Source of the DNA: a virus
Lineage: Duplodnaviria > Heunggongvirae > Uroviricota > Caudoviricetes
Strand: one strand, 5' to 3'
Virus record (IMG/VR): IMGVR_UViG_2713896903_000004
Length of the DNA: 17,818 nucleotides
Made by a program: the position numbers and the translations under genes. Shown here piece after piece: positions 479-8,060 of the stretch. The first letter of the stretch is position 1. Every line of letters begins with the position of its first letter. A model generated the notes under the pieces. It saw only the letters and a list, made by a program, of their open reading frames with translations. It did not search any database and was not told the DNA's origin.

Positions 479-805
479 TTACTCCTTCGAGCTACCAAAT
501 TTGTTGCCGATTACTCTCATTGCAGCACCACGAATAGCATCGACGCCGATCAGCCCAACGCCGCCACCAATGGCAACAGAAAGTGATTTAGGCCATCCGA
601 CATACTCAAGCGCGGATGCAAAGGTCAGCGTCAGAGCGCCACAGAGCAAAATCTCGAGCGTTTTTCTCTTCCAGCCACCACCACCGCCAAAATAGGCAAT
701 GCGCAAGCCAGCCATAACGATCGACATAATCACTGCGCCCAGCGGTGTGTCTCCACGCCACCAGCTCTGGACCAACTCCAGCCAAGTATTTGGGTTATGA
801 GGCAT
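479..805 (-). CDS. Holin (class I-like; three hydrophobic segments, charged C-terminus)
   Basis: 108-aa ORF immediately upstream of the endolysin. Hydrophobic stretches LGAVIMSIVMAGLRIAYF, TLEILLCGALTLTFASALEYV and LSVAIGGGVGLIGVDAI, with a basic tail. Not lambda-S-like in sequence; the call rests on position and topology. Confidence 0.7.
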   Translation of the reverse strand: MPHNPNTWLELVQSWWRGDTPLGAVIMSIVMAGLRIAYFGGGGGWKRKTLEILLCGALTLTFASALEYVGWPKSLSVAIGGGVGLIGVDAIRGAAMRVIGNKFGSSKE

Positions 806-940: not shown

Positions 941-980
941 CAGGCCCAGAAACGACAAAACCCGCTCGACGGCGGGTTTA
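941..980 (-). terminator. Rho-independent terminator for minus-strand transcripts (tR'-like, upstream of holin)
   Basis: 8-bp stem aaacccgc / gcgggttt (958-965 and 972-979) with loop tcgacg. On the minus strand it is followed by the U-rich run uuuugucguuu. Confidence 0.6.
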
Positions 981-1024
981 AGCTGTGTGGCGAAGTAACC
1001 ACTCTTAACACAATACAATACTTT

Positions 1025-1053
1025 TTGCGTACGCGTTAGTGTTTTGATAGAAT
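1025..1053 (+). promoter_or_regulatory. Candidate sigma70 promoter for the AT-rich operon (TTGCGT-17-TAGAAT)
   Basis: -35-like TTGCGT at 1025-1030 and -10-like TAGAAT at 1048-1053 with a 17-nt spacer, about 45 nt upstream of the ATG at 1097. SD-like GGGGA at 1086-1090. Motif match only. Confidence 0.3.
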
Positions 1054-1096
1054 TTTCAGCCACATAAAAATCCATTCTTATAATTGGGGATATATA

Positions 1097-2272
1097 ATGG
1101 ATATAACTTGTTTAGAATGTGGCAATGTTCTTGACGACCCAACTGTAGCTTGCGATAAATGCGGTGCCACGCCTCATGTTGTAGTGCTGGGCAAACAATC
1201 GTACTTTCCTATTGGTGCTGTAACAGCAAATCTTGAAAAAAATGATTCAAGAGCATTTGATTATCGATTAGGTGAAGTTTGGGATCTAAAAAATGAAGTC
1301 ACATCTGAATTCATAACCAGAATTGAGAAAAAATTTAGCCGAAAAAACAAATTTCATAACTTCCTAGACTCAGATCACAACCCTTCATCCATTCCTACGA
1401 TCCTAAAAAAATACATTAATAAAAATAATGAATTCATTGATTTATCTAGAGCTATAATAGAGAGGCTTAAACATAATGCTAATAACGAATCGAGAGTTGC
1501 CCAACTTCAGGGGGGGAGCGTTGTTTTCATCCACTATAAGTCTACCGAACCAGAGGATTTGGGGAAACTTCTAATCGTAATGGTTGATAAACAAAGCGCC
1601 TATGACTTTGATTCGGATAAGTTGACCCCAACAAGATTAAATCCAATTAATACCGATGCCTTACGGCAGGCTGCGATGTTCGATTTAACTTTATTCGAAG
1701 CCAGTTATCCAGAAAACAAGGGTGACTCATATGTACATTTCTTGCAAGGTAAATCTAAAAGCGATTTTTTCAAAGACTCATTAGGTTGCCGACATGATTC
1801 GGACAATAAAAGAAGCATTCAGCAATTATTCAGTGCTATAGATATTTTTGCTAGTAAAAACTCACTCGGTCGTGTACTGCGTGATACTATTGACAATGAA
1901 GTTAAATCCTTACTGGAAAAAAAATCAAAAGATAAACACGGAAATAAGTCCGTTAAGATAGAGGATATTTCAAAAATAATTGACTCATGCCTGACTGATT
2001 CACACAAATGTAAGGGAACGTTTGTCGATTTTGTTAATCTTAATGGTTTCCAGATTGACCCTCAATTTGAACCAACTCCTAAAGCAGCTGAAAGCGCGCT
2101 TACAATTGAAGTGGCAGATAACGACAATAATTTTAAGTTGAAAATAATGCGTGGAGCTATTGGAGACGAAAAGTCAAATAAGCCTGTAATTCTCACTGAC
2201 AACAAATGCGAAATTGTGATAAAATTGAGTCAGGCAAATTATGATGAACTCAAAAGATATAGAGACAGCTAA
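1097..2272 (+). CDS. Hypothetical protein with N-terminal C4 zinc ribbon; possible NdpA/YejK-like (nucleoid-associated) central region
   Basis: 391-aa ORF in an AT-rich block. CxxC...CxxC at residues 5, 8, 19, 22 (CLECGNVLDDPTVACDKCG). The central segment (GGSVVFIHYKS..., YVHFLQGKSKSDFF) resembles my recollection of the YejK/NdpA family but is unverified. Stop TAA is 2 nt before the next ATG. Confidence 0.8.
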   Translation: MDITCLECGNVLDDPTVACDKCGATPHVVVLGKQSYFPIGAVTANLEKNDSRAFDYRLGEVWDLKNEVTSEFITRIEKKFSRKNKFHNFLDSDHNPSSIPTILKKYINKNNEFIDLSRAIIERLKHNANNESRVAQLQGGSVVFIHYKSTEPEDLGKLLIVMVDKQSAYDFDSDKLTPTRLNPINTDALRQAAMFDLTLFEASYPENKGDSYVHFLQGKSKSDFFKDSLGCRHDSDNKRSIQQLFSAIDIFASKNSLGRVLRDTIDNEVKSLLEKKSKDKHGNKSVKIEDISKIIDSCLTDSHKCKGTFVDFVNLNGFQIDPQFEPTPKAAESALTIEVADNDNNFKLKIMRGAIGDEKSNKPVILTDNKCEIVIKLSQANYDELKRYRDS

Positions 2273-2274
2273 TA

Positions 2275-3489
2275 ATGACAATTGCTGATGACTTATCAAG
2301 ATTAGCGCAGATTATTAACGGAGCCTCAAGCAGAGTTGAGGGCTACTACACTGTCATAAGTCTTGAAGAAAGCATTGTTATTGTAAATAGTTCTGAAATA
2401 ATTAGACTGTTACAATCTATAGGTTATAAAAAGGCAACAACCTGCATCGAAAATAATGAAATTTGGCTAGATCGCCAAGCTTCATCTTGGGATGACGCTA
2501 TAATTTATGAGAATGTTGAGTCTTTTTGGTCTAGAGTAAACACCCAAAACGCTCTTCCGAAAAATTATATCATCGGAACGCCGTTAATACTCCCTACTTC
2601 TAAGAATGAAAGCATCGAAAAAATCCATATTTTCTTTATGTGGAAAGATATCCTTTCATTAATTGCTGATCATCATAACAGTGACTGCTCTGTCTTATTT
2701 TTCACCAATGAAGACAAAAGTTATACAGTCGAACTCACGCATTTTTTACAATATAGCGAGATTAATCGCTTATCGAACTCGTCTCTTAAATATGAAATTA
2801 TAAAGGAGCTTCTCGACACAATAAAAATCAATGATTTACACAAAAGCGAGCGCAAGCTCGTTATACGCTCAGCCATAAACGAAGTATTTAAAGCAAATGG
2901 TACGTTCAATTTCTTTGACTTGCTTAACTCTACTGAACTCGTCAGGAAAAAATATGATGAACTATATGAGATTTACACAAAGAGGTTTTCTGTAAATAAA
3001 ATTCTTAACGAACTCGATGAGAAAAATCTTGAGTTCACGAGTAAAATTAACGAATTCATATCATCTAATCAGACAAAAGCATTGACTATTCCCGGTGCAT
3101 TAATAGCAGCTGGTGGCTTAGTGAAGGCTAATGAAACAACCGAAGCAATATTGATTATCGCAGGACTTTGGATGATAAAAAAAGTCAATTACATTTCTAT
3201 TGAGATATTCAATGAAACATTCGACAACTTACGTTCTCGAGTGGAGTCCGCTTTCGATAAGTATTTAAAGTTTGAAGAAAATAAAGAAATCAAAGATAAT
3301 GCAGATAGTATTAAGAGTAGCATTACAGGTTTGATTGATAAAGCTAAAAAAAGGATGAGAACTGTTAAATATCTCGCATCAGCCATGTTTTATGGAGGCC
3401 TTATTTACGTTGGATATAAGCAGTTCCCAGTCTTTTTTGAAAAATCGGCAGTAAATCTATTTTATTTTTTATGCCATACTATAAGCTAA
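2275..3489 (+). CDS. Hypothetical protein with C-terminal hydrophobic (possibly membrane-inserting) segments
   Basis: 404-aa ORF translationally coupled to the upstream gene. Hydrophobic stretches LTIPGALIAAGGLV, AILIIAGLWMI and LASAMFYGGLIYVGY in the last third. No recognisable catalytic motif. Its last 21 nt overlap the 3' end of Q on the other strand. Confidence 0.8.
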   Translation: MTIADDLSRLAQIINGASSRVEGYYTVISLEESIVIVNSSEIIRLLQSIGYKKATTCIENNEIWLDRQASSWDDAIIYENVESFWSRVNTQNALPKNYIIGTPLILPTSKNESIEKIHIFFMWKDILSLIADHHNSDCSVLFFTNEDKSYTVELTHFLQYSEINRLSNSSLKYEIIKELLDTIKINDLHKSERKLVIRSAINEVFKANGTFNFFDLLNSTELVRKKYDELYEIYTKRFSVNKILNELDEKNLEFTSKINEFISSNQTKALTIPGALIAAGGLVKANETTEAILIIAGLWMIKKVNYISIEIFNETFDNLRSRVESAFDKYLKFEENKEIKDNADSIKSSITGLIDKAKKRMRTVKYLASAMFYGGLIYVGYKQFPVFFEKSAVNLFYFLCHTIS

Positions 3490-3825
3490 CATTGCTAAAC
3501 AGCCGTCAACAAACCCCATTGCAGTTTGCAGTTCCTTCCTAATTGTGCCATCAGAGCATTTTCTCTTCTTCGCAATAGTGCGTAATGAGATACCGATAAC
3601 AAAGTGGGCGATGATGAGCTCATATTCCTCTGGTTTATACCTTCTCAACCGAGCCACACAACTGTCTATCATGATGCCTTCATCATCATCGCACTGGAGA
3701 CGTGACTTTTTACCGTGTGGTAGAAGCCCCTTGAAACCAGCCGCTATCGGCTGCCAGTCGACACCACTATTTTCTGCTGCAGCCCAAGCCCCCCAACGAT
3801 CTAAAACTTCGTACATATCACGCAT
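3469..3825 (-). CDS. Late-gene antiterminator Q (small QuuD-type Q family)
   Basis: 118-aa ORF MRDMYEVLDRWGAWAA...IAAGFKGL...CSDGTIRKELQ matches my memory of the DLP12 QuuD-type Q family. GGAGG about 10 nt upstream of the ATG. Positioned between replication genes and the lysis cassette. Confidence 0.75.
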   Translation of the reverse strand: MRDMYEVLDRWGAWAAAENSGVDWQPIAAGFKGLLPHGKKSRLQCDDDEGIMIDSCVARLRRYKPEEYELIIAHFVIGISLRTIAKKRKCSDGTIRKELQTAMGFVDGCLAMLAYSMA

Positions 3826-7401: not shown

Positions 7402-8060
7402 GGGCGCACCTCCCATTGATTACGGCGGAAAGCGGTGTGACTGAGACTGGTTTCAGTTTCATGGAATGCTTCAATGCAGCTCTCGTAGTACCGCATTGTG
7501 CGCAGACTTAACCCAAGCTGAAGCATCATCAGGCCATCAAGGGTGATGTAATAACCACGCAGGGAGTCACCATAGATGTGATAAGTACCCGGTATGAAAT
7601 TGCGGGTAAAAAATTCGCGCGAGCAGTTCAGATACTCGATTTTGTCGACGATGTTCTGGTGCATGCGCTTGAAATGGCAGGCAACATGCAGGGAGAAAAT
7701 AACGGCCTTGCCGTTGACGACTTCGATTTTCAGGTATGGGGAAGTTGGGACAGTAGCCATGATGGCAGCCTCCTTGATCGGTGAAATACTTCCACCACCG
7801 GAAACGCCAATTTCGCTGGTGGTGAACTGAACGGGGTTGGCGTAACCGGTGATCAAGGAAACCGGCGCATCTTTCGATGCCCCCGCCCAGCCCACCATAA
7901 CTTTGATGTGAGCAAATGCGGACGATAAAAAAGACGCTGGCGCGTCATATATCGCCTTGATCAATTCCAGGACGCCAATCCCGGCACCCGCTTTATAAGG
8001 TGCAGAGACAGTGTAACGTCCCGAAATTGCAGAATCAATATTTAGGATTGAAACATTCAT
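7398..8060 (-). CDS. Hypothetical protein (220 aa) occupying the cII slot
   Basis: 663-nt ORF in ~50% GC DNA, co-oriented and coupled with the downstream early genes. No recognisable HTH or catalytic motif. Weak RBS at the annotated ATG. Confidence 0.6.
   Translation of the reverse strand: MNVSILNIDSAISGRYTVSAPYKAGAGIGVLELIKAIYDAPASFLSSAFAHIKVMVGWAGASKDAPVSLITGYANPVQFTTSEIGVSGGGSISPIKEAAIMATVPTSPYLKIEVVNGKAVIFSLHVACHFKRMHQNIVDKIEYLNCSREFFTRNFIPGTYHIYGDSLRGYYITLDGLMMLQLGLSLRTMRYYESCIEAFHETETSLSHTAFRRNQWEVRP

Follow-up and report, generated by a model that had tools for sequence, protein, structure and literature searches.

The late genes of phage lambda are governed by a short unit, pR'-qut-6S RNA-tR', which follows the same logic as the one proposed here: the QBE lies between the -35 and -10 hexamers and a terminated leader precedes S. 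That leader is 194 nt long, and a pause element, AACGAT, occupies positions +1 to +6. The Q protein of lambda (family PF03589) is unrelated to the PF06530 protein that concerns us. Phage 21 has a Q of this same Pfam family, PF06530. Its unit is equally compact, measuring 85 bp from the -35 to the end of the terminator and yielding a terminated RNA of ~50 nt (the two layouts span about 85-100 bp, with a predicted RNA of ~50 nt here), and its QBE sits in the spacer between -35 and -10 (10.1101/651190), at a position equivalent to that of a palindrome found here. The resemblance has limits. Q21 comprises 162 aa and is 23% identical to our Q of 118 aa. Its QBE is made of two direct 8-bp repeats (ATTGAGCA and AATGAGCA), whereas ours would be a single 8-bp palindrome, and a search of the unit found neither the phage 21 QBE nor any direct repeat. 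Phage 21 has a consensus -35 where the hexamer here is a weak TAACGC, and an annotated pause element (SDPE) at +2 to +8 where no clear one is seen past +1. Finally, its promoter comes 7 bp after Q, while in our locus 2.46 kb of cargo lies between the two.

The DNA analysed, which we call the window, is a stretch of 17,818 nucleotides from a tailed phage (IMG/VR record IMGVR_UViG_2713896903_000004). Its features are collected in the table. Replication genes lie upstream of Q; on the same strand the late genes begin with the holin, whose ATG is at position 805 of the minus strand. Between Q and the holin is a low-GC block of two open reading frames on the plus strand, 1097-2272 and 2275-3489, coding for a nucleoid-associated-like (NA37/YejK-like) protein of 391 aa and a partner of 404 aa. 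They match the NCBIfam models DS1_1_antiphage (452 bits, cut-off 330) and DS1_2_antiphage (375 bits, cut-off 315); PADLOC with PADLOC-DB 2023 left the cassette 1097-3489 unrecognised. The DNA just 5' of the cassette (1044-1096, GC 0.31-0.33) contains two candidate promoter elements on the plus strand, both as consensus matches only: TTGATA-16-AAAAAT at 1044-1071, from a promoter scan, and a second candidate -10, TATAAT, read by eye at ~1079-1084. From the Q stop codon to the conserved core discussed below the window counts 2,459 bp. The cassette is an insertion that separates the 3' end of Q from the upstream edge of pR', and with good confidence we take positions 1049-950 of the minus strand to be a complete late control unit, made of pR', a Q-specific element, a leader and tR'. 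What has been observed is the anatomy of this stretch, the way it is conserved and linked to Q, and a start mapped at the homologous base of E. coli K-12.

Table. Coordinates of the late control region and its neighbours in the window
Feature	Position	Strand	Basis or remark
Lysozyme	1 to ~475	-	late gene
Holin S, first late gene 3' of the unit	479..805	-	Pfam PF05106; annotated S in SfII
Intrinsic terminator tR'	950..979	-	stem-loop 979-958, U-rich tail to ~950; position kept in relatives
Predicted terminated leader RNA, ~50 nt, made without Q	950..1003	-	inferred from start site and terminator
Possible small 5' hairpin GUGG...CCAC	987..1002	-	predicted fold
Nearly invariant GTTAAGAGT spanning the start, -6 to +3	1001..1009	-	91-100% conserved except -5
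Predicted late start A1003, 7 nt 3' of the -10	1003	-	homologous A in K-12 DLP12 is a Cappable-seq start
-10 hexamer TATTGT	1010..1015	-	T-12, A-11 and T-7 100% conserved
A5 tract, -23 to -19	1022..1026	-	73-99% A in 70 sequences
8-bp palindrome GCGTACGC, -31 to -24, putative Q binding element	1027..1034	-	type matches Q clade
Weak -35-like hexamer TAACGC, 17 bp 5' of the -10, overlapping the palindrome	1033..1038	-	read from sequence
A-rich tract, UP-element-like, ~-45 to -39, upstream limit of the unit	1042..1049	-	conservation and end of homology
Low-GC DNA 5' of the cassette, candidate promoter divergent from pR'	1044..1096	+	promoter scan; consensus matches only
Cargo: two-gene DS1 anti-phage system	1097..3489	+	NCBIfam; Pfam NA37; antisense to Q and late genes
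Q, late antiterminator, 118 aa, phage 21 family	3469..3825	-	Pfam PF06530; PHROG 79

Homology to other phages extends from the holin as far as 1045-1049, where it ends: SfII matches positions 73-1045 of the window, mEp460 positions 1-1049, and many others only 957-1033. There remain ~70 bp of non-cassette DNA 5' of the hairpin, in agreement with the short interval that the first-pass annotation had pointed out. SfII, mEp460, Stx2a_1447 and phage 434B all have Q, opposite-strand genes, the conserved stretch with its hairpin and the late genes, and the same order (PF06530 Q, antisense cargo, unit, late genes) recurs in PA-2, lambda_4C10 and the K-12 cryptic prophage DLP12. The intervening genes of these named relatives are the nmpC/lc porin, the PADLOC candidate system PDC-M53, or others; the exception in the viral set is phiP27, where a GIY-YIG nuclease gene lies between Q and the unit in the sense orientation. 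A 28-nt core of the unit retrieved 120 viral contigs, and in all 103 that had enough flank a PF06530 Q preceded the core on the same strand, at a distance of 27-3015 bp; in six of these 103 the core starts 27-38 bp after the Q stop. The published primer used for deletion of Q in Phi-stx2dact likewise shows a direct junction between Q and the unit (PMC6328086). Upstream of the core the contigs share a gap-free pattern: a palindrome of 8-9 bp, AAAAA, six bases, TAnnnT, then GTTAAGAG.

Since this sample fixes the core by construction, the survey was repeated from Q alone, with one genome per species of Enterobacterales, giving an unbiased set of 80 loci; an alignment of Q proteins with Q21 among them proved too diverse to be used in the search. 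The unit was found downstream of Q in 76 of these 80 species-level genomes, always on the Q strand, and the conservation figures given below come from 70 distinct sequences of the set. In relatives devoid of cargo it is no more than 40 bp away from the Q stop or overlaps it (-7 to 38 bp), so that the position of pR' is there the canonical one. A comparison with phages of the same Q type, which had been proposed as a check, thus places the unit beside Q wherever cargo is absent. The genes that directly follow it vary: S in the window; a methylase gene, tRNAs and stx in Stx phages.

A minus-strand terminator had been reported ~140 nt upstream of the holin, and it proved sound. The hairpin, AAACCCGC-CGTCGA-GCGGGTTT at 979-958, is followed on the minus strand by TTTTGTCGTTT down to ~950 and ends ~145 nt from the holin ATG. 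A stem of eight pairs, five of them G-C, closed by a 6-nt loop and followed by the U-rich tract, has the form expected of a rho-independent terminator, namely a G+C-rich stem-loop directly before a run of U. On the plus strand the T-run after the hairpin is absent, and the terminator is therefore unidirectional. The 58-nt RNA 1003-946 has a predicted folding energy of -19.6 kcal/mol (z = -2.5 against shuffled sequences). A scan for terminators performed no better than chance (six sites for 4.2 expected in 5 kb), and what makes the hairpin credible is that over 120 related loci have one at the same position, the stems being different (for example CCCGCC/GGCGGG or CCTCGC/GCGGGG). A crude detector, which misses several hairpins visible by eye, recorded hairpin and U-tract in at least 51 of the 70 unbiased loci. 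The label tR'-like that it had received is correct. The 3'-end mapping tables that we consulted (eLife 62438 supplements) have no entry at the homologous locus of DLP12 in K-12.

Hairpin and U-tract lie 25-55 nt past the predicted start A1003. In relatives the predicted leader has a median length of ~59 nt, and beyond +17 it varies in both sequence and length. In the small GUGG/CCAC hairpin at its 5' end 77.5% of cells are paired, with weak covariation. A search of positions 780-1150 against Rfam at permissive settings brought no family to its gathering score (best E-value 0.33); an isrK-like match with E = 9.6 was set aside as due to chance.

The first-pass annotation had found only weak -35 and -10 candidates on the minus strand, and concluded that there was no convincing late promoter. 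The first half of this assessment stands for the -35: TAACGC matches TTGACA at three of six positions, and the loci of clades C and D (defined below) read TTTACG or TTTACA at this place. It does not stand for the -10. In the independent unbiased sequences, aligned in a gap-free frame, T-12, A-11 and T-7 are each present in 70 of 70, while positions -10 to -8 vary. Outer bases that are invariant around variable inner ones are what is expected of a sigma-70 -10 element, and for this reason we assign that role to the hexamer 1015-1010. The conclusion itself fails, as the conserved pattern of 38 nt occurs once in the window and in none of 200 shuffles. The A at +1 is likewise conserved in 70/70. 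Further upstream, positions -45 to -40 are A in 53-87% of the 70 sequences, and positions -29 to -23 are conserved at 97-100% with the exception of -27 (77% A), which is the one position that separates the two main types of palindrome. Past +1 the 70 sequences contain no conserved nAnnnT hexamer that could act as a sigma-dependent pause element, a component by which the known Q-loading sites are defined. Nearly invariant, instead, is TGnTAAGAGT spanning the start; the sole conserved -10-like hexamer is its AAGAGT, from -3 to +3. With this -10-like part, GTTAAGAGT may possibly be a pause or loading determinant.

Other candidates were considered for the promoter. A first TATTGT (1020-1015) and the overlapping TAAGAG/AAGAGT were both dropped as main -10, only the hexamer 1015-1010 being invariant and fitting the K-12 start. 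Between the terminator and S (957-806) there is only a poor and unconserved TTGACG-17-CGGTAC. We also observed an inverted repeat around the start, TAAG at 1007-1004 (-4 to -1) and CTTA at 982-979 (~+22 to +25) on the minus strand, with compensatory changes in some relatives (GATAAG/CTTATC, GTTAGG/CCTAAT). Since the 5' arm precedes the mapped start, only transcripts entering from further upstream would contain it, or else the repeat would reflect a symmetry at the level of DNA.

E. coli K-12 provides a mapped start. A Cappable-seq list places a plus-strand start at 576452 in U00096.2 coordinates (PMC4782308, supplementary file 1). The core in DLP12 starts at 577223 of NC_000913.3, and the start predicted by homology is the A at 577229. 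With an offset between U00096.2 and NC_000913.3 that we take to be 777 bp, 576452 becomes 577229; the same offset puts a neighbouring strong start, 576081, 7 nt 3' of a TATTAT hexamer. The listed start is thus the exact homologue of A1003, with the caveat that DLP12 belongs to another Q clade, whose -35 is better. Its signal is weak, with a relative read score of 1.7 for a threshold of 1.5; libraries of the Cappable-seq type usually capture short RNAs poorly. With ~16,000 starts in the list, we estimate at ~0.002 the chance that one of them would fall on one given base and strand. Together with the comparative evidence, this mapped start in a homologue supports the alternative that the first-pass annotation had kept in reserve, namely that a compact pR' survives in the short interval. 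One observation in the same prophage we count against our main reading: the neighbouring, much stronger start just mentioned (score 90), at NC_000913.3 576858, plus strand (4359 in our copy of the locus, L129), preceded by TATTAT, is aimed at the unit from 371 nt upstream, just 5' of the start codon of the opposite-strand nmpC, in cargo-specific DNA.

A promoter that fires without Q, as the K-12 start indicates, and a strongly conserved start region and leader would also be expected if the unit were a self-contained gene for a small RNA of ~50 nt, kept for a role in trans, while the late genes were controlled elsewhere or read incidentally. There is a precedent in StxS, the pR'-tR' RNA of Stx phages, which is a functional Hfq-binding sRNA (PMC7547250). 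Yet StxS is itself a pR' leader, and a role as sRNA is compatible with a role as pR'. Moreover, the place of the unit is always the interval from Q to the late genes, on their strand; its upstream element co-varies with the clade of Q, for which an independent sRNA gene would have no need; and the leader has no Rfam family and varies past +17. We regard this explanation as unlikely, and retain a late control unit as our reading.

The place of the cassette bears on the other alternative raised at the outset, in which pR' and the Q loading site would be beside Q (~3470-3520), late transcripts would cross the cassette in antisense over ~2.4 kb, and the hairpin 979-958 would be the sole remnant of late control at its present place. 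Adjacency of Q and pR' is canonical in lambda, 82, 21 and 933W, and 2.4 kb is a distance easily crossed by a Q-modified polymerase. However, the second cassette ORF is convergent with Q and extends to 3489, past the Q stop codon (3469-3471), so that no intergenic DNA is left beside Q; a scan detected no promoter- or terminator-like site near the Q stop. Homology between Q genes is itself lost before the stop, after a conserved GF(I/V)(D/E)G: the last ~10 codons, which overlap the end of the cassette ORF (3469-3505, minus strand), differ with each type of cargo, Q ending in ...CLAMLAYSMA here and in ...ILLIIKPL in SfII. Because the tail of Q changes with the cargo, the left recombination junction must be within the Q coding sequence. 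In K-12, the Cappable-seq list has no plus-strand start between the stop of quuD and the 3' end of nmpC. A constitutive pR' beside Q would, in addition, expose the defence genes to antisense transcription in every lysogen, and it would leave unexplained an invariant -10 and a Q-matched palindrome next to the terminator. We therefore consider such an arrangement extremely improbable, and keep pR' downstream of the cassette.

The slot in which the cassette lies is used in a regular manner. In all 59 cargo-bearing loci of the unbiased set (L130-L209) the longest ORF of the interval is antisense to Q and to the late genes, and the cargo sampled there includes DS1-like proteins and AAA/KAP-type ATPases. 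Every locus with the clade A palindrome CGTACG, 52 of 52, has cargo of at least 473 bp, and the cargo-free loci of the unbiased set belong to clade B, apart from two with atypical palindromes. In Serratia genomes tandem arrays of the whole unit, from palindrome through -10 and start region to terminator, directly follow Q: ~8 copies, one every 109-112 bp, in L177 (4965-5819), and further arrays in L180 (4965-5284) and L176 (4982-5353).

The Q of the window matches PF06530 with 160 bits for a cut-off of 26, and PHROG 79, to which it is assigned, is described as anti-termination protein Q-like. Among 43 unique Q proteins of the viral set, distributed in five clades, the clade corresponds without exception to the type of palindrome. 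Clade A, with this window and SfII, has ISLRTIAKKRKCSDGTIRKELQ in the region of the recognition helix and the palindrome GCGTACGC; clade B has ISKRKLAKARKKDEKLIRIEIQ and GCGGTCCGC; clade C, which includes DLP12, has ACGTACGT; clade D has ACGATCGT or ACAATCGT; and clade E, with phiP27, has GGAATTCC. In the 70 species-level loci of the unbiased set the cross-tabulation of Q clade and palindrome gives 51/0/0/13 (Fisher p = 8e-14, a value that ignores relatedness), and a few odd Q proteins carry odd palindromes. The association could in part be due to physical linkage and shared ancestry. Simple co-inheritance is disfavoured, since the same palindrome is seen with at least 10 different cargo lengths while variants of the -10 and the downstream flanks are common to different Q clades. 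From the sequences, GCGTACGC is thus the putative binding element specific to the Q of clade A. Its place in the spacer, where it overlaps the -35, corresponds to that of the QBE in both lambda and phage 21.

Q21 binds direct repeats and not palindromes, and the palindrome marks the boundary of the cargo in every cargo-bearing locus, as would an operator of some other regulator or a recombination site for the exchange of cargo. Early read-through coming from Q would, furthermore, meet the terminator 979-950 first, and the hairpin might then serve mainly to end early rightward transcription derived from pR, or transcription flanking the cassette. But the palindrome is kept in loci without cargo, and its type follows the clade of Q rather than the type of cargo, the diversity of cargo lengths being that just mentioned; a look beside the slot, which was not systematic, revealed no integrase or recombinase gene; and neither an operator nor a recombination site accounts for the invariant -10 and the mapped start. 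This explanation appears very unlikely to us, and we keep the palindrome as a part of the late promoter.

With somewhat more doubt than belief, we put forward a general proposal. Q proteins of the QuuD type (~103-127 aa) would recognise a clade-specific palindrome of 8-9 bp at -31 to -24 (GCGTACGC, GCGGTCCGC, ACGTACGT, ACGATCGT or GGAATTCC), in a geometry unlike that of the direct repeats of Q21, possibly with a -10-like element overlapping the start in place of a downstream pause site; and the junction between Q and its promoter would be a dedicated slot, almost only antisense, for accessory and defence genes outside the control of Q. Proteins of this type are very common in prophages of Enterobacterales, and a comparative study of pR' in Stx phages left pR' undefined for the PF06530/QuuD type (PMC6266700).

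The following scenario is, in our view, probable. In the lysogen, RNA polymerase would start at about A1003 and be halted by the hairpin, so that a short RNA results. Once the prophage is induced, early transcription would supply Q (3469-3825); acting in trans, it would recognise the palindrome GCGTACGC (1034-1027) and load onto polymerase newly started at pR', presumably while it pauses. The loaded polymerase would then pass tR' and transcribe S, R and the remainder of the late operon, and the DS1 cassette would be transcribed divergently from pR'. As the cassette is upstream of pR' and divergent, late transcription would never cross it; late transcripts would start ~200 nt upstream of S. The distance between Q and its site is no obstacle, Q being a diffusible protein, and indeed pR' reporters carried on plasmids are activated by factors encoded by prophages (PMC6266700). 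A position of Q immediately upstream of pR', which is lost here and found in the cargo-free relatives, is accordingly typical but not mechanistically required, because Q acts in trans.

Elsewhere in the window, a search of its whole length against Rfam gave two matches above gathering score on the minus strand, C4 antisense RNA at 7815-7902 (82 bits) and isrK at 7927-8003 (64 bits), which indicate an antisense-RNA immunity or antirepressor region of the P1/P7 type in a lambdoid prophage.

What the analysis adds for this locus is the exact anatomy of the unit, the rule that links the clade of Q to the palindrome, and the strict antisense orientation of the cargo (59/59). The defence cassette stays outside the unit controlled by Q, without antisense late transcription, and is free for expression in the lysogen. 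Now that its exact bounds are defined, the 3' end of Q on one side and the upstream limit of pR' on the other, the slot could be used to find new defence genes. The correspondence between Q clade and palindrome offers a simple recognition code, amenable to test, for a branch of the Q21 family that is very common but has not been studied. In some Shiga-toxin phages (phiP27 and Stx2a_1447) stx itself is preceded by this unit, and there the position of pR' affects expression of the toxin.

Comparison with the systems that share this arrangement shows where the locus belongs. DLP12 (qsr') and PA-2 have the same architecture, with a quuD gene of family PF06530, the antisense nmpC/lc porin gene, the unit and the holin gene essD. 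The cargo of DLP12 is a porin gene where ours is a defence system, and DLP12 further differs by its clade C palindrome ACGTACGT, its -35 TTTACG and its S21-type holin. In the Stx phages (933W; Sakai Sp5 and Sp15) a constitutive pR' is terminated just downstream and a short RNA is made in lysogens, as we propose here, and accessory (moron) genes are present in the interval between Q and lysis, as they are here (PMC7547250). In contrast with our locus, pR' adjoins Q in these phages and the leader is 258 nt long; their cargo (tRNAs, stx) is 3' of tR', in the sense orientation and dependent on Q, whereas here it is 5' of pR' and antisense, and for this very reason independent of Q. The unit is an ordinary late promoter-terminator, of a kind already known, which a defence cassette has moved away from Q.
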